From the UHGV virus genome UHGV-1649846: DNA of 11,193 nucleotides; one strand, written 5' to 3'. Position numbers and translations under genes: made by a program. The notes under the pieces were generated by a model. That model saw nothing but the letters and a program-made list of their open reading frames with translations. It was not told where the DNA came from and did no database searches. The DNA comes from a virus. Below, in pieces: positions 1 to 11,193 of the stretch (the first letter of the stretch is position 1; each line of letters begins with the position of its first letter).

Positions 1-144
1 GCACCGAGGCGTCGCATTCTTCAGATGGTTCAACCCTTAAGTTAGCGCTTATGGGAGAAATCCCCGCAACCTCTGATGTATTATGCATCCTCAACGCAGC
101 CACAGTTAACCTGATTGGCGGGTTTACTTCATCTGTAAATATTT

Positions 145-231
145 TTATAAAAATAATGCCCACGCACAGCATAAAACAAAAAGTATTACAGATAAAAAAG
201 GAACGTAATGTGCAGATTTGTTGTTTTCCAT
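145..231 (-). CDS. Candidate small hydrophobic peptide, 28 aa (MENNKSAHYVPFLSVILFVLCCAWALFL); below the size cutoff of the ORF track
   Basis: Minus-strand ATG at 231-229, stop TAA at 147-145. Shine-Dalgarno-like AAGGTGAG (complement of 237-244) lies 5 nt upstream of the ATG. Polar N-terminus followed by one ~19-residue hydrophobic segment. AT-rich context, so a chance ORF is not excluded. Confidence 0.25.
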   Translation of the reverse strand: MENNKSAHYVPFLSVILFVLCCAWALFL

Positions 232-253
232 ATTTACTCACCTTAATATGATT

Positions 254-268
254 AACCCTGATAGGGTT
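254..268. repeat. Perfect inverted repeat AACCCT-gat-AGGGTT
   Basis: 6-bp arms with a 3-nt spacer, read directly. It lies in what would be the 5' leader of the minus-strand small ORF, or could be an operator-like site. Confidence 0.5.
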
Positions 269-505
269 GTTATTTCAGCGGTTTTTAAATGAGATATTAT
301 GGTGATCTGACAAATTTGCATAACATTAAAATTTAATTTGTCTAACCGCTTTTAATAATAAGCGTTGTATTTTATCCCAGCAATCTATTGTTTGATTTTT
401 ATTCCATCAATGTGGGGGCTTTACACTGGAACCAGTTTATTTATACTTTATACGTCAGCCTGAACAACTGGCATCTGCTGCACTGCGCCATCGAGAGATT
501 GAGAA

Positions 506-1105
506 ATGGCGCATATACAACTGGTCAAACAAACTTCTTCTGGTTTACTTCTCCCGGCGACGCCGGAGAGTTGCGATTTTCTGCATCAAATCAAAATAGG
601 TGAGTGGATACACGGAGACTTTAAGCGTGTGCGTAACTACGCATTCCACAAGCGTTTTTTCAAACTCCTGCAACTGGGATTCGATTACTGGACTCCGGTC
701 GGTGGGGCGATCACGCCTCGCGAACGAGAACTGCTGTCTGGTTTCGTTGATTACCTGTGCGAATCAGTTGGTCGGGAACACACGCCAGCCCTGAGTGATG
801 CCGCAGAGCAATACCTTAACACCGTTGCGACTCGTAGAACCCGGGATACGGCGTTGCTAAAGTCGTTTGAGGCTTTCCGCGAGTGGGTAACCATTCAGGC
901 CGGATTTTACACCGAGCATATTTATCCGGACGGTAGCCGTGGGCGTCGGGCAAAATCCATCGCTTTTGCGAATATGGACGAAGTCGAGTTTCAGCAGGTT
1001 TATAAATCTGTACTGAATGTGCTGTGGAACTGGATTCTGTTCCGTAAATTCTCCTCTCAGGAGGAAGTTGAAAATGTGGCCGCACAACTACTGGAGTTTG
1101 CGTAA
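506..1105 (+). CDS. Lambdoid nin-region protein, DUF1367-like (~200-aa prophage family; assignment from memory)
   Basis: 199-aa ORF in the track; GAGA purine-rich stretch upstream of the ATG. Its stop overlaps the next start (TAATG at 1103-1107), indicating translational coupling. Position immediately upstream of the Q-like gene, as in lambdoid nin regions. Confidence 0.5.
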   Translation: MAHIQLVKQTSSGLLLPATPESCDFLHQIKIGEWIHGDFKRVRNYAFHKRFFKLLQLGFDYWTPVGGAITPRERELLSGFVDYLCESVGREHTPALSDAAEQYLNTVATRRTRDTALLKSFEAFREWVTIQAGFYTEHIYPDGSRGRRAKSIAFANMDEVEFQQVYKSVLNVLWNWILFRKFSSQEEVENVAAQLLEFA

Positions 1106-1395
1106 TGGTGAATTTACGTAAAGCGGCTAAAGGCCAGATGTGCCAGATCAGAATCCCTGGCTACTACAATCACAATCCCGAAACCTCTGTGCTGGCGCAT
1201 TACAGGCTGGCGGGGACGTGCGGAACAGCGACAAAACCACATGATATGCAGGCGGCGATAGCCTGTAGCTCATGCCACGATCTAATCGACGGGCGGGTAA
1301 AAACCAGCGATTACACCAAAGAAGAATTGCGCCTGATGCATGCTGAAGGGGTTTTTCGCACACAAGAAATCTGGAGAAAGAAAGGTCATTTATGA
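1105..1395 (+). CDS. Small Cys/His-rich nin-region protein, YbcO/DUF1364-like putative nuclease (assignment from memory)
   Basis: 96-aa ORF; start overlaps the upstream stop and its own stop overlaps the next start (ATGA at 1392-1395). Cys/His cluster (C..C..H, C..CH) suggests a metal-binding site. Confidence 0.5.
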   Translation: MVNLRKAAKGQMCQIRIPGYYNHNPETSVLAHYRLAGTCGTATKPHDMQAAIACSSCHDLIDGRVKTSDYTKEELRLMHAEGVFRTQEIWRKKGHL

Positions 1396-1934
1396 TTTAC
1401 CCAACGAATACAGGAAAAAGCGGAGAACACCTTCGCCTCACCACGCTGGAAAGTGTCTGGATTCAGGGAAAACTACGTATGTGGGGGCGCTGGTCGTATA
1501 TTGGCGGTGGCAGGTCAGGGAATATGTTCAATCAGTTGTTGGCATCCAAAAAACTGACGAAAACAGCCATTAATGAAGCCCTGCGCAGAATGAAAAAAGC
1601 GGGAATAGAGAAAGCTGAGCTGGAAGCGTTTTTGCGAGAGATGATCAACGGCAAGCAAAAGAGCTGGCTGGCGCATTGTACTGATGCAGAGGCGTTATGT
1701 ATTGATCGAGTCATAAGTGAGGTGCTGGCAGAGCATCCAGGATTGATTTGCATTCTCCGGCAACGCTATGAAGGGCGGGGGATGACTAAGCGCAAAATGG
1801 CTGAATTGCTAAATGATGCACACCCAGAGTGGTGTTTTAGCACATGCGAAAAACGGATTGCTAATTGGTTAGCTGTTGCTGAGTATGCCCTACATATTCC
1901 CATGCGTGAATCATTTGCTGAGAAAATGGCTTGA
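1392..1934 (+). CDS. Late-gene antiterminator Q-like protein
   Basis: 180-aa ORF, last gene of a coupled three-gene unit, followed at once by a strong intrinsic terminator and then a cargo/lysis region, which is the canonical position of Q. Trp-rich N-terminal motif (LRMWGRWSY) resembles the small Q family of E. coli prophages; C-terminal helix-turn-helix-like segment. Confidence 0.5.
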   Translation: MIYPTNTGKSGEHLRLTTLESVWIQGKLRMWGRWSYIGGGRSGNMFNQLLASKKLTKTAINEALRRMKKAGIEKAELEAFLREMINGKQKSWLAHCTDAEALCIDRVISEVLAEHPGLICILRQRYEGRGMTKRKMAELLNDAHPEWCFSTCEKRIANWLAVAEYALHIPMRESFAEKMA

Positions 1935-2013
1935 TTTCTTACGTATAAACTGCTTCAATTTTGCTATGCTTCGCAAAGCTGTATCGCGAGGCGGATTGCA
2001 GACATGGACATCG
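1935..2013 (+). promoter_or_regulatory. Expected location of a PR'-like late promoter and Q-utilisation site (not resolved at base level)
   Basis: Positional inference only: ~80 bp between the Q stop and the tR'-like terminator. Candidate -35/-10 hexamers (TTGCTA 1952-1957, TATCGC near 1981) are weak. Confidence 0.3.
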
Positions 2014-2042
2014 TAAAAAAACCGCTTAATGCGGTTTTTTTA
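2014..2042 (+). terminator. Intrinsic terminator, tR'-like (A-tract / hairpin / T-tract, potentially bidirectional)
   Basis: AAAAAAA (2014-2020), stem ACCGC (2021-2025), loop TTAAT, stem GCGGT (2031-2035), TTTTTTT (2036-2042). Confidence 0.7.
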
Positions 2043-2078
2043 CGTCAGGAAAGCAGGGGAGAATGCTGCTAGTTGGGC

Positions 2079-2117
2079 AACTGGTCTTTCTGCTCCAAAT
2101 TATAACAGAGACCAGTT
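2079..2117. repeat. Inverted repeat AACTGGTCT ... AGACCAGTT (9-bp arms, 21-nt spacer)
   Basis: Arms at 2079-2087 and 2109-2117 are exact reverse complements, read directly. Confidence 0.5.
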
Positions 2118-2361
2118 ATAGTTTCGGTGCTGTGTTTTTTTACAATATTGTGATAACACATTGCTGGCGGGAGTTTTGATATTTCTTGGCAGGGGCTGAT
2201 GATGCGTTATCCTGATGTCGTCAACTCATATAAAATGAGATGAGAGATCATTGCAGGGTGGTTTGTAATTCGCTGTTTAGCGGGACAATATGTTGTCTGA
2301 TACAAGACACCCGACGCCTCAGATTACTATAATAAAGACGAAGCATCCTTTGTATTGACCA

Positions 2362-2387
2362 ACCGCCTGTTTAGGCGGTTCTTTTTG
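2362..2387 (+). terminator. Intrinsic terminator
   Basis: Stem ACCGCCT (2362-2368), loop GTTT, stem AGGCGGT (2373-2379), followed by a T-rich run (TCTTTTT). Confidence 0.6.
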
Positions 2388-2918
2388 GGCTGGTTTATTG
2401 TATGCCAAATGATTATTAAAAAGGTTGTGTTAATAACAAAATCCGAAATAATATGCCTGCATATTTTTATCTTGCTTATATTCTGCATATTGTGCATAGC
2501 AGGCTCATCCCTGCAATCAAAACTGTATGATGAGTATTTTTTGTTTTCCTTTTTTCCAGTCATCTGATGATGACCTGCTTCTTTTTAATCCGGATCGACA
2601 TCAGTTTTTTAAGATAATTCCTGCGAGTTATATGCATAAATGCCACAAACTCCGCATTTTATGTGGTTGGGAGTTGCCGGGCGCGCAGTGAGTTTGCTAA
2701 GAAAACTCCTGCATGGTGAATCCCCCTGTGCGGTGGGGTGATACCATTAACCTTTTCTGTCGCCGACAGGTATCACGAACATTTTGTTCACCGGGAGGCA
2801 CCCGGCACCATGTACTTCAATAGATTCTCTCCACATTATGGATATTCTTTCAGAATATCCCACGCAGACTTTGTGTAAATGTTAACAAATGTGCGTTTTA
2901 TTTGATCTGATTCGCTGT

Positions 2919-2948
2919 TTGAGCGTCCAAAACAACGGTATATATAAT
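2919..2948 (+). promoter_or_regulatory. Sigma70-like promoter for the lipoprotein cassette
   Basis: -35 TTGAGC (2919-2924), 17-18 bp spacer, -10 ATATAA/TATAAT (2942-2948); about 30 bp upstream of the RBS GAGGAAAA and the ATG at 2978. Confidence 0.45.
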
Positions 2949-2977
2949 CCTTTACTATATGACATATGTGAGGAAAA

Positions 2978-3406
2978 ATGGGTTTTCGTAGCGCATCAAT
3001 TCTTACGTTGATTATTAGTGGGATTATTATCGGGTGCACTGATGCTGTATCGACAAATTATCATGACCGTACATCATATTACTCCGATAAAGCAATAGAG
3101 ACACAGTATGTGAGTTCATCTGAACGTACTTCTGATGTTAGTGAGGATATCCGTCTGTATGCCCATCAAATCAAGAGCGCCATCGAAAAACAGTTCGGGG
3201 ATGCGAGTAAGTATTCAGGAAAAGAGTGTACACTGAGAATGCATATGGCCCCGAATGGCCTTCTACTGGAGGTTAAAAGAGAAAGTGGAGACCTCGATTT
3301 ATGTCGTGAAGCGATGAATGCGATAAAGAATGCTGATATACCTGCCCCCCCTTCGCCGGAAGTATATAAAGTATTTCAAAATGGGGTGCTGGATTTTAAA
3401 CCCTGA
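2978..3406 (+). CDS. Lipoprotein with a TolA C-terminal domain (domain III)-like fold
   Basis: 142 aa. Signal peptide with lipobox IIGC (Cys20), then a ~50-residue Ser/Thr/Asp-rich linker, then ~85 residues that align closely with my recollection of the E. coli TolA C-terminus, including both conserved Cys and the terminal VLDFKP. RBS GAGGAAAA precedes the ATG. Confidence 0.8.
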   Translation: MGFRSASILTLIISGIIIGCTDAVSTNYHDRTSYYSDKAIETQYVSSSERTSDVSEDIRLYAHQIKSAIEKQFGDASKYSGKECTLRMHMAPNGLLLEVKRESGDLDLCREAMNAIKNADIPAPPSPEVYKVFQNGVLDFKP

Positions 3407-3469
3407 TATTTATTGTTTTGTAATAAACGGTTTCGGCTTAGGTTTGTTCTGACACAGCTACGGCACTGA

Positions 3470-3481
3470 GCTAAATTTAGC
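3470..3481. repeat. Perfect 12-bp palindrome GCTAAATTTAGC between the two lipoprotein genes
   Basis: Read directly. A second short palindrome GCTCTGAGC lies at 3491-3499. Confidence 0.5.
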
Positions 3482-3556
3482 GGATAGTCAGCTCTGAGCC
3501 AGTGGCGGACGTAACAACTACTATTGCTGAGATTTTAATGGATTGAGGAGCAAGAA

Positions 3557-3952
3557 GTGGGATTAAAGAAAATCGTTATGTTGACTTTTTGGGTCGGTTT
3601 TGTTGCGGGATGCACACCTTTACACCCTTCAGATTGCCACAAAACTACTGCTACAGGTAGTTGCAGTTCAGGACGCTGGGATGATCAGGATGAATGGGGG
3701 GCGCAAGCGCGGGGAATCAGAGCTGCAATTAATGCCAAACTTGATGAGCCGCATAACTGGAAAGGGAAAAAATGCAGGTTGCATATGGAATTCTCTCAGG
3801 ATGGCACGGCGTTAAAAATATCTACCAGTAACGGTGATAAAGCCTATTGCGAAGCGATAAAGTCCGCAGCTCATAAAGCCAAATTTCCGGCCTTCAACAA
3901 TCCGGAAGTCTACAGAGATTTTCAGAAATCTGGCTTTGACATGCGAGGTTAG
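3557..3952 (+). CDS. Second, more divergent TolA-domain-III-like lipoprotein (tandem paralogue)
   Basis: 131 aa from a GTG start 6 nt after a strong SD (GAGGAG 3545-3550). Lipobox VAGC (Cys19). C-terminal ~80 residues keep the TolA-III pattern GK.C.L...DG...G...C.A...A...P....VY..F with both Cys conserved. Confidence 0.7.
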   Translation: MGLKKIVMLTFWVGFVAGCTPLHPSDCHKTTATGSCSSGRWDDQDEWGAQARGIRAAINAKLDEPHNWKGKKCRLHMEFSQDGTALKISTSNGDKAYCEAIKSAAHKAKFPAFNNPEVYRDFQKSGFDMRG

Positions 3953-4077
3953 CTCTTCAATTACTATATCTCATTCATAGCAAACTGACAGATTTGATGA
4001 TGTTCTATATACGAAACCTGTGATGTCAAGTCTGAGCTAATACAAATAAACATAATATCAGAGAAATACATTTTATT

Positions 4078-4101
4078 AGCTCGCTACGGCGAGCTTTTTA
4101 T
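4078..4101 (+). terminator. Intrinsic terminator closing the lipoprotein cassette
   Basis: Stem AGCTCGC (4078-4084), loop TACG, stem GCGAGCT (4089-4095), then TTTTTA. Confidence 0.6.
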
Positions 4102-4203
4102 ATTGCATCGTCTCCAGCATATATATCAATTAAGGCTCTGATTGATGTGTCTGAAAGCCTACACATAATAACTATGCCATCCGTTCCGTGCGGAGGTGAG
4201 GCT

Positions 4204-4419
4204 ATGAAATCCATGGACAAAATTTCAACAGGCATTGCCTACGGCACCTCCGCAGGCAGTGCTGGCTACTGGTTTTTACAGTTGCTCGATAGAGTAACTC
4301 CGTCACAGTGGGCTGCAATCGGTGTGCTGGGTAGTCTGGTATTTGGCCTGCTGACGTACCTGACAAACCTTTATTTCAAGATTAAAGAAGATAAGCGCAA
4401 GGCTGCGAGAGGTGAATAA
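4204..4419 (+). CDS. Class II holin, phage 21 S-type pinholin with dual-start motif
   Basis: Begins [26 protein letters not shown]..., nearly the S21 sequence as I recall it. Met1 and Met4 give the antiholin/holin dual start. SD GGAGGTGAGG at 4191-4200. The track's longer ORF from 4147 lacks an RBS. Stop overlaps the endolysin start (TAATG). Confidence 0.85.
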
Positions 4420-4916
4420 TGCCTCCATCATTACGAAAAGTCGTTGCTGCTGCTATTGGTGGCGGAGCAATTGCTATAGCATCAGTGCTAATCACTGGCC
4501 CAAGTGGTAACGATGGTCTGGAAGGTGTCAGCTACATACCATACAAAGATATTGTTGGTGTATGGACTGTATGTCACGGGCATACAGGAAAAGACATCAT
4601 GCTCGGTAAAACGTATACCAAAGCAGAATGCAAAGCCCTCCTGAATAAAGACCTTGCCACGGTCGCCAGACAAATTAACCCGTACATCAAAGTCGATATA
4701 CCGGAAACAATGCGCGGCGCTCTTTACTCATTCGTTTACAACGTGGGTGCTGGCAATTTCAGAACATCGACGCTTCTTCGCAAAATAAACCAGGGCGATA
4801 TCAAAGGCGCATGTGATCAGCTACGTCGCTGGACATATGCTGGCGGTAAGCAATGGAAAGGTCTCATGACTCGTCGTGAGATTGAGCGTGAAATCTGTTT
4901 GTGGGGTCAGCAATGA
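4419..4916 (+). CDS. SAR endolysin (phage 21 R-type lysozyme)
   Basis: 165 aa. Gly/Ala-rich weakly hydrophobic N-terminal signal-arrest-release segment ([20 protein letters not shown]), then a lysozyme-like domain. Sits immediately after the holin and overlaps the Rz start (ATGA). Confidence 0.85.
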
Positions 4917-5377
4917 ACAGAGTAACCGCGATTATCTCCGCTCTGGTTATCTGCATCATCGTCTGCCTGTCATGGGCTGTTAATCATTACCGTGATAACG
5001 CCATTACCTACAAAGCCCAGCGCGACAAAAATGCCAGAGAACTGAAGCTGGCGAACGCGGCAATTACTGACATGCAGATGCGTCAGCGTGATGTTGCTGC
5101 GCTCGATGCAAAATACACGAAGGAGTTAGCTGATGCGAAAGCTGAAAATGATGCTCTGCGTGATGATGTTGCCGCTGGTCGTCGGCGGTTGCACATCAAA
5201 GCAGTCTGTCAGTCAGTGCGTGGAGCCACCACCGCCTCCGGCGTGGATAATGCAGCCTCCCCCCGACTGGCAGACACCGCTGAACGGGATTATTTCACCC
5301 TCCGGGAACGACTGGTAATGATGCAGGCCCAACTTGAAGGTGCTCAGCAATACATAACCGAGCAGTGTTTAAAGTAA
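4913..5377 (+). CDS. Rz-like i-spanin
   Basis: ATG at 4913 overlaps the endolysin stop. N-terminal transmembrane segment ([14 protein letters not shown]), then a coiled-coil-like charged region. Contains the Rz1 gene in the +1 frame. The track's GTG start at 4901 is rejected. Confidence 0.8.
5133..5318 (+). CDS. Rz1-like o-spanin, embedded in Rz in the +1 frame
   Basis: 61 aa. Signal peptide plus lipobox (LVVGGC), proline-rich mature part (PPPPPAW..PPPDW). SD AGGAG at 5121-5125, 7 nt before the ATG. Confidence 0.8.
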
Positions 5378-5514
5378 AATCTTAACTACAATATGATTCA
5401 TTTTGATGATTGTTTCATAAGGAACAGTGAAGTAAGATCTAAGAGGAGTTAAATTTTATACAGTATAATCATAATATTGCAGCAAGGTGGTTATAATTGA
5501 AAGAATATTTAGAT

Positions 5515-6972
5515 ATGAATACATCTCATGTAAGAGTTGTTACTCATATGTGTGGGTTCCTAGTTTGGCTCTATAGTCTTTCAATGTTGCCACCAATGGT
5601 TGTAGCATTGTTTTATAAAGAAAAAAGCCTGTTCGTTTTCTTTATAACTTTCGTTATATTTTTTTGCATTGGTGGCGGAGCGTGGTATACAACTAAGAAA
5701 TCTGGCATTCAATTACGTACCCGTGATGGGTTTATTATAATTGTAATGTTTTGGATTTTGTTTTCTGTTATTAGTGCATTCCCTTTATGGATTGACTCAG
5801 AACTTAATTTAACGTTCATTGATGCTCTGTTTGAAGGGGTTTCTGGAATAACAACAACAGGAGCAACTGTAATTGATGATGTTAGTTCATTACCTCGGGC
5901 ATATTTGTACTATCGGTCACAGTTAAATTTTATAGGTGGTTTAGGAGTTATTGTTCTAGCGGTTGCTGTATTGCCATTATTGGGTATTGGTGGTGCAAAG
6001 CTTTATCAGTCAGAAATGCCGGGGCCATTTAAGGATGACAAACTCACTCCCCGCCTGGCCGATACGTCACGGACACTGTGGATAACTTATTCTTTATTAG
6101 GTATTGCTTGTATTGTCTGTTATAGACTTGCAGGAATGCCTTTGTTTGATGCTATTTGTCACGGGATTTCCACAGTTTCGCTTGGTGGTTTCTCAACTCA
6201 TAGCGAGAGTATCGGATATTTTAATAACTATTTGGTTGAGCTGGTGGCTGGTTCTTTTTCCCTGCTATCGGCTTTCAACTTCACTCTTTGGTATATTGTT
6301 ATTAGCAGGAAAACGATAAAACCTTTAATCAGAGATATTGAACTTCGTTTCTTTCTGTTAATAGCCTTAGGGGTGATCATTGTTACCTCTTTCCAGGTCT
6401 GGCATATAGGTATGTATGACTTGCATGGAAGTTTTATTCATTCGTTTTTTCTTGCCAGCTCCATGCTCACTGATAATGGTTTAGCTACGCAGGATTATGC
6501 AAGTTGGCCCACGCACACGATAGTGTTTTTGCTGTTGTCAAGTTTCTTTGGGGGATGTATAGGTTCAACTTGTGGTGGAATTAAGTCACTTCGATTTCTT
6601 ATACTTTTCAAACAAAGCAAACACGAGATAAATCAGCTTTCTCATCCCAGAGCGTTGTTGAGTGTAAATGTAGGAGGGAAGATAGTTACAGATCGTGTAA
6701 TGAGGTCTGTATGGAGTTTCTTTTTTCTTTATACTCTCTTCACGGTGTTTTTTATACTGGTGTTAAATGGTATGGGATATGATTTTCTTACATCATTTGC
6801 AACAGTGGCTGCATGTATTAATAATATGGGATTAGGTTTTGGGGCTACTGCATCGTCATTCGGAGTGCTTAATGACATTGCAAAATGCTTAATGTGCATA
6901 GCTATGATTCTTGGTCGCCTTGAAATTTATCCTGTTATTATATTGTTTTCAGGTTTTTTTTGGCGCTCCTAA
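5515..6972 (+). CDS. trkG: TrkH/TrkG-family potassium uptake membrane protein
   Basis: 485 aa from the ATG at 5515 (MNTSHVRVV...), multi-pass membrane protein of the Trk K+ transporter family, matching my recollection of E. coli TrkG. Visibly AT-rich. An upstream in-frame TTG at 5497 preceded by SD AAGGTGG (5485-5490) would add 6 residues. Confidence 0.9.
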   Translation: MNTSHVRVVTHMCGFLVWLYSLSMLPPMVVALFYKEKSLFVFFITFVIFFCIGGGAWYTTKKSGIQLRTRDGFIIIVMFWILFSVISAFPLWIDSELNLTFIDALFEGVSGITTTGATVIDDVSSLPRAYLYYRSQLNFIGGLGVIVLAVAVLPLLGIGGAKLYQSEMPGPFKDDKLTPRLADTSRTLWITYSLLGIACIVCYRLAGMPLFDAICHGISTVSLGGFSTHSESIGYFNNYLVELVAGSFSLLSAFNFTLWYIVISRKTIKPLIRDIELRFFLLIALGVIIVTSFQVWHIGMYDLHGSFIHSFFLASSMLTDNGLATQDYASWPTHTIVFLLLSSFFGGCIGSTCGGIKSLRFLILFKQSKHEINQLSHPRALLSVNVGGKIVTDRVMRSVWSFFFLYTLFTVFFILVLNGMGYDFLTSFATVAACINNMGLGFGATASSFGVLNDIAKCLMCIAMILGRLEIYPVIILFSGFFWRS

Positions 6973-7058
6973 TATATGGCTGATTTATAATTGTGAGTTT
7001 AATATTATGTTGACTCACTCATTGATCCAATACCTAACTTTACCAGCAACACCTCCGT

Positions 7059-7090
7059 CCCCAGTAGCACTGGCTGCTGGGGTGCGTTTT
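7059..7090 (+). terminator. Possible terminator after trkG
   Basis: Stem CCCCAG (7059-7064), 12-nt loop, stem CTGGGG (7077-7082), then TGCGTTTT. The T-tract is offset, so weak. Confidence 0.35.
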
Positions 7091-7109
7091 ATTCATAAAG
7101 CAAGGCTGT

Positions 7110-8435
7110 ATGAGCGAGAAATTAAAGATAGTCTATCGCCCATTACAAGAATTGTCACCGTATGCGCACAACGCCAGGACGCACAGTACTGAGCAGGTGG
7201 CACAACTGGTAGAAAGTATTAAGCAATTCGGCTGGACTAATCCGGTGCTGATTGACGAAAAGGGCGAAATTATTGCGGGTCACGGTCGTGTTATGGCGGC
7301 TGAAATGCTCAAAATGGATTCTGTTCCGGTCATTGTTCTGTCTGGCCTGACGGATGAGCAGAAAAAGGCGTACCGCCTGGCAGATAATCGCCTGCCGATG
7401 AATGCTGGCTGGGATGAAGATCTGTTGCGGATGGAGCTGTCGGACCTAATCAATGCTGATTTTGATGTCTCCCTGACAGGCTTCATCCCGACAGAAATTG
7501 ATGAACTGTTGACGGATGTTTTGCCCGGTACCGGACGTTGCGTCGTGCTGGCTATACCGGGAAAATTTTTATCGTTGTTGATGATGAAGATAAGACACGG
7601 CATCAGTACATGGCTGAATTTGGTGAACAGGTGCTGGTGTTTTCCAAAGCCGATATCGCCAGTCGTTTTGACGAAGCCGATAATTTCTGTGACCGCCGCT
7701 CAATTTTTTACGCCCGTAATGCCTGTTTCGACCTGGCAAAACTGGTCGGGTGTAAATACTTCATTCAGCTCGATGATGATTATCACGAGTTCCAGTTTCG
7801 GGTGGATCGCAACTATGACCAGGCCTATTTTCCGATAAGGAAACTGGATGCGATCCTTTCTGAAATGCTGGCGTACTACGAATCAATACCTGCTCTTTCC
7901 ATCGCTATGTCGCAGGGCGGGGATTTTCTTGGTGACAATGGCGGCCATGCTTCGTGGGTGAAACGCAAGGCAATGAACAGCTTTATCTGTTCGGTTGATC
8001 GACCGTTCTCATTCATGGGGCGCATTAACGAGGATGTGAATACGTACACGAATCTCGGTCGCTGTGGTGAATTGTTTATGACGATCGGTGCTGTCCAGTT
8101 AGGGCAGAAACAGACGCAGAAAAACAGCGGCGGAATGACCGAGCTGTATCTGGATTCCGGAATCAGCGAAGGAACTGGGTATTGATGTTCGCGATATTTC
8201 CCCGGCTGAGCGGGCCAGCATGGATGGCGTGGTGGCCGGAGATACAACCTACAGGGAATGGTTTTTGCGTCAGCCTTACACCAGACAAAAACAGATTGTG
8301 GGGGAAACCCGAGCAAAGCTGATTCGGGATGGTGGTATGTCGCCAGATGAATTTTACACCGATAAAGGCGAATGGCTGACGCTGAAGCAGCTCCGTGAGC
8401 GTGATGCACAGGTATTCAGAAAAGCAGGGATTTAA
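7110..8435 (+). pseudogene. ParB/sulfiredoxin-like N-terminal domain gene, apparently disrupted by two frameshifts
   Basis: Frame 0 from the ATG at 7110 gives ~140 aa of plausible ParB-like sequence (..IIAGHGRVMAA..) and then degenerates. A second frame is open from 7505 to 8185 (DxD-containing segment) and the first frame reopens from 8139 to 8435. Three collinear overlapping segments with one terminator at the end suggest a single decayed gene of roughly 440 codons. Confidence 0.5.
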
Positions 8436-8454
8436 ATAAATCATTTATTACAAC

Positions 8455-8482
8455 AGGCTACCTTCGGGTGGCCTTTTTTATT
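8455..8482 (+). terminator. Strong intrinsic terminator (UUCG tetraloop)
   Basis: Stem AGGCTACC (8455-8462), loop TTCG, stem GGTGGCCT (8467-8474, one G-U pair), then TTTTTTATT. Confidence 0.7.
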
Positions 8483-8539
8483 GCTGCGATCCGGATGGTG
8501 AGCAGCGTAACTGTCGGAAGAATTAAACCAGGTACTAAT

Positions 8540-9304
8540 ATGAAACTGAAAACGGTCGAGATTAACGGAAAACAATACGCAGAAATTGATACTGCTGGCC
8601 TGCCAGTTTATGTGCACGACGATGGTAAAGAAATTGGCTTCGATGCACCGCTGGCGACAAAAAAAATTACAGAGCTTAATGGCGAGGCAAAAAATCATCG
8701 CCTGGCTAAAGAAGCTGCAGAGGAAAAACTGGCTAAGTTTGCCGCTATCGAAGACCCGAAGAAGGCGATCGAGGCACTGGAAATGCTGTCAAAAATCGAC
8801 CAGAAAAAGCTGCTCGATACGGGACAGGTTGACCAGGTTAAGGCAGAAATTACGAAAAATTTTCAGCAGCAATTAGATGAAGAAAAGCAACGCTCTCAGA
8901 TGCTGGAGAAGCAGCTTTACGATTCTATGATTGGCGGTAGTTTTGCGGGTTCAAAATATATTGCCGATAAAATTGCGATCCCGGCAGATTTATTACAAGC
9001 CCGCTTCGGGCAGGCATTCAAAGTGGAAGAAGGGAGGATCGTTGCTTATGACGCTTCCGGCAACAAAATTTATTCCCGCGCGAAGCCTGGCGAACTGGCG
9101 CAGTTTGATGAGGCGCTGGAGTTCCTTGTCGAAAATTACCCTCAGAAAGACTACATCCTGAAAGCCAGTGGCAACAATGGCGGCGGCTCCCGTCCGACAC
9201 AGCATGATATTGGTCAGAAAACGATGAAACGCTCTGCTTTTGATGCACTGGATGTTGCAGGTAAGCAAAACGCATTGAAAGACGGTATCACAATCGTTGA
9301 TTAA
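8540..9304 (+). CDS. Hypothetical phage protein, K/E-rich with predicted coiled-coil; possibly scaffolding or head-assembly-like
   Basis: 254 aa from the ATG at 8540 (MKLKTVEINGK...), preceded by AGGT. The track's earlier start at 8468 lies inside the terminator hairpin. Central segment rich in K/E/Q/A heptad-like sequence. No confident family assignment. Confidence 0.45.
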   Translation: MKLKTVEINGKQYAEIDTAGLPVYVHDDGKEIGFDAPLATKKITELNGEAKNHRLAKEAAEEKLAKFAAIEDPKKAIEALEMLSKIDQKKLLDTGQVDQVKAEITKNFQQQLDEEKQRSQMLEKQLYDSMIGGSFAGSKYIADKIAIPADLLQARFGQAFKVEEGRIVAYDASGNKIYSRAKPGELAQFDEALEFLVENYPQKDYILKASGNNGGGSRPTQHDIGQKTMKRSAFDALDVAGKQNALKDGITIVD

Positions 9305-9350
9305 CACATTTGTCAGCTTCCGGATGGGAGCTGGTGTCAGGGCTGGATAG

Positions 9351-11193
9351 CTCATTACTCCATCTAAGGGACGCTTCCTGAACAACATTAACGCGGTCAG
9401 TAAAACAGACTTTGCTGATAAGCGTGGTATGCGTTATGTGCGGGTTAACGCTCCTGCAGGTGCAACATCTGGAAAATATTACCCTGTTGTTGTTATGCGT
9501 TCTGCTGGCTCAGTAAGCGAACTGGCATCAAGGGTCATTATCACCACGGCAACGCGAACCGCAGGCGATCCGATGAATAACTGCGAGTTTAACGGATTTG
9601 TTATGCCTGGTGGCTGGACTGACAGGGGGCGTTATGCTTATGGAATGTTCTGGCAATATCAAAACAATGAACGAGCCATCCACTCAATAATGATGAGTAA
9701 TAAGGGCGATGATTTGCGCTCTGTGTTCTATGTTGATGGCGCTGCTTTCCCTGTTTTTGCGTTTATCGAAGATGGCCTGTCAATATCCGCACCTGGTGCT
9801 GATCTCGTTGTTAATGATACGACCTATAAGTTTGGGGCAACAAATCCGGCGACTGAATGTATCGCGGCGGACGTTATCCTTGATTTTAAGAGTGGGCGTG
9901 GTTTTTATGAGTCTCATTCGTTAATCGTTAACGATAACTTGTCGTGCAAAAAACTTTTTGCCACAGACGAAATTGTAGCGCGTGGTGGTAATCAGATTCG
10001 AATGATAGGTGGGGAGTATGGGGCATTATGGCGTAATGATGGCGCTAAAACTTACCTGCTGCTTACCAATCAAGGTGATGTTTATGGTGGCTGGAATACA
10101 TTAAGACCGTTTGCTATTGATAACGCAACCGGCGAACTGGTTATTGGAACCAAACTGTCCGCAAGTCTGAACGGTAATGCATTAACAGCAACAAAGCTGC
10201 AAACGCCAAGACTGGTTTCTGGTGTTGAGTTTGATGGTTCCAAAGATATTACTTTAACCGCCGCGCATGTGGCTGCTTTTGCCAGAAGGGCAACGGATAC
10301 ATATGCCGATGCGGATGGTGGCGTTCCCTGGAATGCCGAATCAGGCGCTTACAATGTCACCCGCTCTGGCGACAGCTATATTCTGGTTAACTTCTATACC
10401 GGAGTCGGAAGTTGCCGGACCCTGCAGATGAAGGCGCATTACAGAAATGGTGGTCTGTTCTACCGTTCTTCAAGAGATGGCTATGGTTTTGAGGAAGACT
10501 GGGCAGAAGTTTATACCTCGAAAAATCTTCCACCAGAAAGCTACCCAGTCGGCGCACCAATCCCGTGGCCATCAGATACCGTTCCGTCTGGTTATGCCCT
10601 GATGCAGGGGCAGACTTTTGACAAATCTGCCTACCCGAAACTTGCTGCCGCTTATCCGTCAGGCGTGATCCCTGATTTGCGTGGCTGGACGATTAAGGGC
10701 AAGCCCGCCAGTGGTCGTGCCGTATTGTCTCAGGAACAGGATGGCATTAAATCGCATACCCACAGCGCCAGCGCATCCAGTACGGATTTGGGGACGAAAA
10801 CCACATCGTCGTTTGATTACGGCACTAAATCCACGAATAACACTGGTGCGCATACCCATAGTTTAAGTGGCAGCACGAATGCAGCTGGTAATCACAGCCA
10901 TAGAGATGGCCGTCGATTTAACCCCAGTGTTTTTAAAGATACTTATCAATATGGTTATACAAGCTCAGGTCAAAATACCTGGGGTGTACAAGGCTCAGTA
11001 GGTATGTCTACGGGGTGGTTAGCGAATACCAGTACAGATGGTAATCATAGCCATTCACTGTCCGGCACAGCAGCATCTGCAGGTGCACACGCGCATACTG
11101 TCGGTATTGGTGCTCATACGCACTCCGTTGCGATTGGTTCACATGGACACACCATCACCGTTAACGCTGCTGGTAACGCGGAAAACACCGTCA
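9351..11193 (+). CDS. stf: Side tail fibre protein, 5'-incomplete and running off the right edge of the window
   Basis: Frame 0 is open from the stop at 9348-9350 to the window end, with no RBS-supported start (first ATG at 9429). The last ~210 residues match the lambda Stf C-terminal region as I recall it ([58 protein letters not shown].. with GAHTHS/GNHSHS repeats ..[15 protein letters not shown]). It is absent from the ORF track because no stop codon falls inside the window. Confidence 0.85.

Follow-up and report, generated by a model that had tools for sequence, protein, structure and literature searches.

The probable remnant of a head-and-tail module in a defective Rac-type prophage of Escherichia coli: three deletions, two of which begin at recurrent breakpoints

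Introduction

How does a lambdoid prophage lose its head and tail genes, and is the place where each deletion begins a matter of chance? This question is raised by UHGV virus genome UHGV-1649846, from which a stretch of 11,193 nt was analysed (hereafter the window; positions given without a locus name are those of this whole stretch). A lysis cassette and a potassium transporter gene (trkG) are followed there by a few gene fragments and by a side tail fibre gene (stf) that lacks its 5′ part. The remnant module, 7110-11193, is with a probability of about 0.9, as judged from its sequence, the leftover of the head-and-tail module of a defective Rac-type lambdoid prophage of Escherichia coli. Three illegitimate deletions between microhomologies would have stripped this morphogenesis module. 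The window is a private deletion derivative of a well-known element. Decay by deletion is ordinary in kind; what is unexpected is that two of the three joints sit on recurrent breakpoints.

Collinearity with Rac-type prophages and position of the joints

The whole window was compared by megablast with 5,426 complete E. coli genomes. It matches Rac-type prophages at 99.3-99.9% identity. The full window was found as a single contiguous match in none of these genomes, the best record covering 87% of it in four pieces. The relatives examined closely belong to strain LR-03 (locus L001) and strain EH10-18-47 (loci L002 and L003). The latter strain carries a Rac-type prophage that adjoins ttcA and has a complete late region. 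The order of its late genes is: lysis genes, trkG, a ParB/Srx gene, a 310-codon 'hypothetical' gene, a 70-codon open reading frame (ORF), terS, terL, the genes of a DUF4055 portal, a minor head protein, a DUF6651 protein and a P22-type major capsid, connector and tail genes, the tape measure gene, tip genes, J, lom, stfR, tfaR and pinR.

The joints were placed by local blastn and by base-by-base comparison with EH10-18-47. Four blocks of the window are collinear with this prophage at 99.5-100% identity, and the joints between them are exact to the base. Window 31-7531 corresponds to L002 15001-23762 (except for an IS3 found solely in L002), 7529-8162 to L002 24185-24818, 8161-9366 to L002 29855-31060, and 9365-11193 to stfR from nucleotide 1533 onward. 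All bases of 31-9366 fall in segments that are collinear with the reference prophage, and no window sequence is left over. The backbone of trkG, ynaK and stfR is collinear at the nucleotide level, as in the late region of Rac-type prophages.

Joint 1 (7529-7531, crossover TAC) corresponds to a deletion of 425 bp (L002 23763-24187), joint 2 (8161-8162, crossover AA) to a deletion of 5,038 bp (L002 24819-29856) and joint 3 (9365-9366, crossover TA) to a deletion of 16,198 bp whose first base lies just ahead of the major capsid gene and whose last is stfR nucleotide 1532. In total, 21,661 bp were lost. The features of illegitimate deletion are found at each crossover, with 2-3 nt of microhomology, and no insertion sequence (IS) is present at any of the three joints. 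The left end of joint 1 sits on a recurrent breakpoint, named HS1 (…GCCCGGTA followed by C), and that of joint 2 on another, named HS2 (…TTCCGGAA followed by CC).

The deletion at joint 2 takes the 3′ end of a gene encoding a TET-associated glycosyltransferase (TAGT), the 70-codon ORF, terS, terL, the portal gene and codons 1-280 of the minor head gene. At joint 3, the scaffold-capsid intergenic region is followed directly by stfR from nucleotide 1533 (codon 512 of 1116). Altogether, terS, terL and the portal, major capsid, connector, tail tube, tape measure, tail tip, J and lom genes are deleted, and stfR has lost its first 511 codons. No terminase, portal, major capsid, tail tube, tape-measure or tip/J gene is present in the window; all of them lie inside the three deleted intervals. 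An initial annotation, made from the letters of the window alone, had already stated that the terminase, portal, capsid, tape-measure and J genes were missing and that the morphogenesis module was cut to fragments by deletion beside a 5′-truncated stf; both statements agree with the collinearity of 31-9366 with the reference segments and of 9365-11193 with stfR. It had also suggested a deletion or recombination joint near 9305-9430, to be located by alignment with complete lambdoid phages and with the Rac prophage of K-12. Alignment with EH10-18-47 places a joint at 9365/9366, but it is one of three and not the only one.

Because terS, terL and the portal, capsid, tail tube, tape measure, tip and J genes are lost, the locus would be unable to make particles, as had been predicted. 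The deletions probably arose in the chromosome. At least in part they would have arisen at separate times, since joint 1 occurs elsewhere without joints 2 and 3. Two points weigh against reading the region as the leftover of a deleted module. The missing genes could lie elsewhere in the source genome, for instance in another prophage acting as a helper, and joints 2 and 3, which were found in no other sequence, rest on a single assembly.

Gene remnants between trkG and the fibre

The remnants are all on the + strand. The first, 7110-7531, includes codons 1-141 of the 263 codons of a ParB/Srx-like gene (collinear with L002 23341-23762; Pfam ParB_N; PHROG 620, 1.9e-71). At joint 1, its codon 141 runs into codon 22 of the TAGT gene in another reading frame. 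The ParB/Srx frame passes out of frame into this next fragment and ends at a stop at 7836-7838, which results in a 242-codon ORF. The initial annotation had described a frameshifted ParB-like gene; no frameshift exists, and the appearance of one is due to the 425-bp deletion that fuses ParB to TAGT out of frame. The second remnant, 7532-8162, is an internal fragment of the TAGT ('GREB1-related') gene, codons 22-231 of 310, collinear with L002 24188-24818. It matches Pfam TAGT (3.4e-27) and PHROG 842, a glucosyltransferase family (3.8e-73).

The third remnant, 8163-8435, corresponds to the last 90 codons and the stop of a MuF-like minor head (head morphogenesis) gene (collinear with L002 29857-30129; PHROG 241, 3.9e-44). 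It had been overlooked in the earlier inventory of the genes lying between Rz/Rz1 and the fibre, in which trkG was correctly listed and the 'one hypothetical gene' can now be identified. The latter is an intact DUF6651 gene of 254 amino acids at 8540-9304 (collinear with L002 30234-30998), whose product resembles head scaffold proteins (Pfam DUF6651, 1.1e-60; PHROG 784; PHROG 206, 'head scaffolding protein', 3.1e-22). A terminator-like hairpin with a T-run (8455-8484) is found between the minor head remnant and this gene. The last remnant, 9305-9366, consists of 62 nt of the scaffold-capsid intergenic region and holds a TAG at 9348-9350; the capsid ATG of the intact relative lies 37 nt beyond the break of joint 3.

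The ParB 5′ part, the TAGT middle and the minor head 3′ end are predicted to be non-functional fragments, and the scaffold-like gene is intact but orphaned. In intact relatives (L002 23341-25057), the ParB/Srx-like gene and then the TAGT gene are found directly upstream of terS. They could form a putative DNA-modification pair, both members of which are disrupted in the window.

The side tail fibre fragment

The 3′ part of stfR, from codon 512, extends over 9366-11193 (+ strand), the end of the gene lying 38 nt past the window. Its frame is opened by the TAG stop at 9348-9350 and is open from 9351. Its identity to the StfR of EH10-18-47 (1,116 residues) is 91% over residues 510-1104. The Pfam domains found (Gp34_trimer, gp37_C, Collar and Phage_fiber) are those of a C-terminal fibre or receptor-binding part. 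Over all 1,829 nt, the DNA of the fragment is 99.0-99.2% identical to the Stf genes of phages PhiR34_1 and Kati. The gene of PhiR34_1 (99.2%) is 3,405 nt long: 1,538 nt of it precede the match, and 38 nt follow the point at which the window stops.

Residues 397-614 of the fibre frame (the C-terminal 218) are 69% identical to lambda orf-314. The first ~396 residues have no match in lambda Stf, and nothing in the frame matches orf-401. The first 352 residues of the full-length StfR are 79% identical to lambda orf-401 and are deleted in the window. The early residues of the frame, of which about 380 had been noted as unlike the lambda Stf N-terminus, thus differ from it because the orf-401-like part of StfR was deleted. 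This part presumably attaches the fibre to the tail.

Within the first 650 nt of the fibre frame, no in-frame ATG, GTG or TTG is preceded by a Shine-Dalgarno match above 4 of 6, and no promoter-like site was found before the fragment. The initial annotation had pointed out both the opening of the frame after the stop and the lack of a start supported by a ribosome-binding site, and was right on both counts. Since the N-terminal region, a Shine-Dalgarno-supported start and a promoter-like site are all lacking, the fragment (the 3′ 54% of stfR) is a predicted pseudogene, without the tail-attachment N-terminus.

The fibre 3′ part would survive as a substrate for recombination rather than as an expressed gene. 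Its exchange with incoming phages, which had been suggested from the sequence, is plausible because of the ~99% identity to the Stf of viable lambdoid phages. Lambda has been shown experimentally to acquire Rac stf/tfa sequence through homologous recombination (PMC3945230). A mosaic patch is found at 10863-11045, in the His-rich distal part of the fibre; it is unlike K-12, LR-03 and EH10-18-47 and matches PhiR34_1 and Kati at 99%.

Occurrence of the joints in other sequences

None of joints 1, 2 and 3 is present as contiguous sequence in the 5,426 complete E. coli genomes. Joint 3 is also absent from species-representative genomes, JGI metagenomes and IMG/VR. Joint 1, searched as the fusion protein across it, is present in three short SRA contigs (L006-L008, from runs SRR26969280, SRR21143471 and SRR21142344). 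These contigs part from the window after position 8162, which means that they carry another joint at the second site: after …TTCCGGAA they enter a gene encoding a gp53-like tail protein, foreign to the Rac reference. As they combine joint 1 with a different HS2 joint, two breaks at HS2 took place in the lineage with joint 1. In strains 13C1079T and 3036, the right breakpoint is 38 nt away from that of the window (stfR nucleotide 1533).

Recurrent breakpoints in related prophages

Related loci were collected because L006-L008 diverge from the window exactly at the position of joint 2. About 200 loci were gathered by means of two exact anchors, the 22 nt ending in …TTCCGGAA and the ParB start, and were mapped onto a composite intact reference. 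The anchors lie to the left of HS1 and HS2, and leftward deletions are not fully sampled. About 50 distinct internal deletions were found in these loci, with microhomologies of 0-7 nt. Most defective copies hold 2-5 deletions, and their retained fragments are in the original order and orientation.

HS2 is the segment of 11 bp that follows …GGATTCCGGAA (reference 24818-24828, window 8162). At least 13 distinct continuations are found there (window 8152-8172; loci L001, L006-L011, L032, L033, L070, L085, L091, L107, L118, L130 and L146). They include deletions into the minor head gene, the connector genes, J (twice), stfR (three times), tfaR and a foreign tail gene. All are rightward deletions except one, an inversion of terS in EC24. 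In this strain (L010 1560-2790), the terS segment L002 25150-26306 is inverted at HS2 and 331 bp are lost; the second break, at 25150, is also the left breakpoint of a deletion in another strain (L103). Only in EC24 did HS2 seem to be intact but with T following GGAA; this reading was rejected, since the strain is itself rearranged at that base.

HS1 is the position that follows …TTTTGCCCGGTA (reference 23761-23767, window 7530). At least 10 distinct continuations are found there (window 7520-7540; loci L033, L172, L176, L188, L189, L201, L206, L214 and L222), and in most of them the partner likewise has TA at the crossover. A second cluster of breakpoints occurs close by, at L002 23773-23788. 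The inverted motif TACCGG, at L002 24185 and 24211, is the partner in the window and in L033.

Among the 50 non-IS first breakpoints seen with the ParB-start anchor, 16 fall within the 18 bp of HS1 and HS2, out of 8,960 bp scanned. Broken copies were also counted in complete genomes with 160-nt probes, a probe 260 bp away serving as control: HS2 is interrupted in 36 of 907 copies, HS1 in 108 of 1,099 and the control in 3 of 936, counts that include clonal descent and, for HS1, an excess part of which may stem from diverged ParB homologues. On this strand, CCGG[AT]AC occurs within 11 kb only at HS1 and HS2. The microhomologies of the partners step along the last bases of a fixed left end. Neither site was seen as a right-hand breakpoint in the collected loci, in which leftward deletions are incompletely sampled, the anchors being to the left of the sites. 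HS2 precedes terS by 430 bp.

At other breakpoints a different preference is seen, for GGTTAT(C), of which 5 of 23 sites are used; for GGTTATC in 26.5 kb, the figure is 4 of 7. The left ends of five independent deletions are concerned (composite reference 29305, 29696, 31790, 37495 and 39296; loci L174, L178, L180 and L206). The last base shared at the crossover is A in 57% of cases (26% expected), a terminal A or TA being favoured. The stretches of ~65 nt located 3′ of each hot spot (L002 23774-23845 and 24814-24880) are mutual best matches in the 37-kb reference; their likeness is weak (local score 41, against a background of 17±5; shuffle p about 0.01). They may correspond to a shared protein-binding element or to chance. 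In almost all defective copies, the final deletion has its end within J, lom, stfR or tfaR (composite reference 41762-49431), and no deletion removing pinR was seen among the collected defective copies.

Candidate causes of the deletions

It is tentatively proposed, as an explanation rated somewhat below even odds, that two of the deletions begin at sequence-specific break sites, between CCGGTA and C in the ParB-like gene and between CCGGAA and C in the TAGT gene, and that the morphogenesis module undergoes directional erosion rather than random decay. A recurrent nick, cut or replication block would leave a fixed 3′ end at HS1 or HS2, and this end would be rejoined or re-primed downstream by means of 1-5 nt of homology. 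The best fit to the data would be a fixed 3′ end that results either from site-specific nicking or cutting or from a collapsed fork. The candidate agents are the phage packaging machinery, a ParB-like nuclease, a restriction-type or host enzyme, and fork collapse at a bound protein. The number of continuations at both sites, with DNA lost toward the packaging and head genes, argues for break sites, as do the concentration of breakpoints in 18 bp, the excess of broken copies over the control, the restriction of the motif to HS1 and HS2 on this strand, the microhomologies that follow the fixed left end, the lack of either site as a right-hand end and the proximity of HS2 to terS. The last feature and the one-sided, rightward deletions also point to HS2 as a candidate pac/cos site. 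Several points speak against break sites. The motif fits no enzyme or known recognition site; the preference of other breakpoints for GGTTAT(C) indicates that the breaks may not share a single cause; neither HS1 nor HS2 is the starting point of deposited phage records; and the caveats on the counts of broken copies and on the sampling of leftward deletions, given above, apply.

Serial template switching in a single event (microhomology-mediated break-induced replication) could instead have produced all three joints. It would explain why order and orientation are kept, the fragments being collinear both in the window and in the copies with 2-5 deletions, and the 2-3 nt microhomologies fit the published model (PMC2621351). 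Joint 1 is, however, found in three other assemblies with a different HS2 joint and without joint 2, which indicates separate events at least in that case; a single event is judged unlikely. Selection is a still less probable explanation: the retained pieces would have been kept because they are useful, the C-terminal receptor-binding part of Stf acting together with tfaR and pinR, which are found downstream of it in the relatives, and perhaps with the scaffold-like gene, for example in blocking the adsorption of other phages. There is a precedent, as a chimeric Stf from the cryptic prophage e14 blocks adsorption of T2 (PMC12529663), and the ends of the last deletions in J, stfR or tfaR, as well as the lack of any observed loss of pinR, are in keeping with it. 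The fibre fragment nevertheless has neither a start with a ribosome-binding site nor a promoter-like site, the window has no pix-type inversion site, and the joints are private and recent, so that retention does not require selection. That the joints were created by faulty assembly of a draft or metagenome contig is very improbable. Joints 2 and 3 were indeed matched by no other sequence searched, but microhomologies of 2-3 nt are far below any assembler k-mer, joint 1 was assembled independently three times, and copies with several deletions of the same sort are found in finished genomes.

Other candidates were considered and rejected. To our knowledge, there is no CCGG-containing restriction site that agrees with both hot spots; of the 167 CCGG sites in the module, the majority do not coincide with any breakpoint. 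Recombination of PinR/Pin type at the joints is not supported, as no pix-like site was found within 3 mismatches in the window and the hot spots are unlike published pix repeats. Activity of the Rac integrase at secondary sites was discarded because the K-12 att core, TTGTTCAGGTTGTATTGTTCTTTCTT, is not similar to the hot spots. Hairpins or cruciforms were discarded because single-strand folding of ±45 nt around the hot spots, on both strands, gave results no better than shuffles (z -0.2 to -1.7). Gyrase scission mapped with quinolones was reported to precede G (PMC6379681); the breaks observed here precede C or T, and DNA gyrase sites are not supported. For self-targeting by type I-E clustered regularly interspaced short palindromic repeats (CRISPR), judged from sequence, the logic of escape fails, several HS2 joints retaining the would-be protospacer adjacent motif and protospacer. 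Virion ends at the hot spots are not supported either: ten deposited records of related phages span the sites internally, an observation that is uninformative for headful phages.

Lysis cassette and upstream genes

The lysis cassette is of lambdoid type and consists of four open frames on the + strand, with Pfam matches above curated cut-offs: a P21-type holin (4204-4419; Phage_holin_2_1), a lysozyme (4419-4916; Phage_lysozyme), Rz (4913-5377; Phage_lysis) and Rz1, embedded in Rz (5133-5318; Rz1). Its coordinates are those of essD/rrrD/rzpD as annotated in L001. It is followed by trkG (5515-6972, + strand; Pfam TrkH, 5e-145), carried as a moron. This gene is intact, 99.5% identical to the trkG of K-12 Rac and low in G+C (0.35-0.40). 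A gene encoding a Q-like antiterminator (DUF1133) is intact at 1392-1934. The earlier proposal that the prophage can probably lyse its host is upheld as far as the four lysis genes and the Q-like gene are concerned; the window starts in an IS element, and the switching on of the late operon is only a prediction.

Two genes with TolA C-terminal domains (2978-3406 and 3557-3952) are located between the Q-like gene and the holin gene. As possible morons, they may influence the Tol-dependent entry of colicins or phages. Positions 1-56 lie in IS421, an element of the IS4 family, with 31-56 matching its terminal repeat. Bases 1-30 match what is the opposite end of IS421 in L001 and L002. Compared with these loci, the IS, or the DNA that lies beyond it, is thus in inverted orientation.

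Significance

Taken as a single locus, the window adds one further defective Rac-type prophage, with joints known to the base and named remnants. It is an example of a prophage that keeps its lysis genes, the moron trkG and a 3′ half of a tail fibre gene able to donate host-range sequence. If deletions do start at a defined sequence, decay has a mechanistic bias in a common family of E. coli prophages. The 'domestication' of Rac-type prophages would then be driven in part by mechanism, beyond random deletion and selection, and the bias would affect the dating and the interpretation of defective prophages.

Comparison with known systems

Deletion hot spots at the origin nicks of M13 and pC194 reportedly have one fixed endpoint and variable partners. 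HS1 and HS2 differ from them in that no nicking enzyme or origin is known at either site. The resemblance of HS1 and HS2 to these hot spots and to the template-switching model (PMC2621351) is one of pattern only: a fixed endpoint, many partners and 1-5 nt of homology. As in this model, several jumps per locus are found in some copies.

The Rac prophage of K-12 (b1345-b1375) is like the window in its backbone of Rz/Rz1, trkG and ynaK (ParB-like), followed by stfR, tfaR and pinR. Nucleotide identity is 99.5% over 4933-7363 (2,431 nt) and 98.3% over 9365-10862 (1,498 nt). Like the window, K-12 Rac lost its morphogenesis genes through internal deletions. These deletions are different, ynaK being joined to ydaY (11.6 kb) and the 5′ part of the tape-measure gene to lom (8.4 kb). 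Unlike the window, K-12 Rac has an IS5 in lomR and a full-length stfR. The window has an intact lysis cassette of DLP12/Qin type, whereas K-12 Rac has only the rzpR/rzoR remnants.

The fibre of the window shares the orf-314 part of lambda Stf (orf-401 and orf-314) and is without residues 1-511. The phages PhiR34_1 and Kati carry the full Stf gene, of which the window holds a 3′ fragment at 99% DNA identity. Complete Rac-type prophages (those of EH10-18-47 and SE11, and the induced phages vB_EcoS-666R9 and relatives) have the same gene order as the window and are 99.5-100% identical to it in the retained blocks. They keep the 21.7 kb that the window has lost, which include the ParB 3′ end, the full TAGT gene, terS (Terminase_2), terL (Terminase_6N/6C), the genes of the DUF4055 portal, the MuF-like head protein and the P22-type capsid, the tail genes, J, lom and the 5′ half of stfR.

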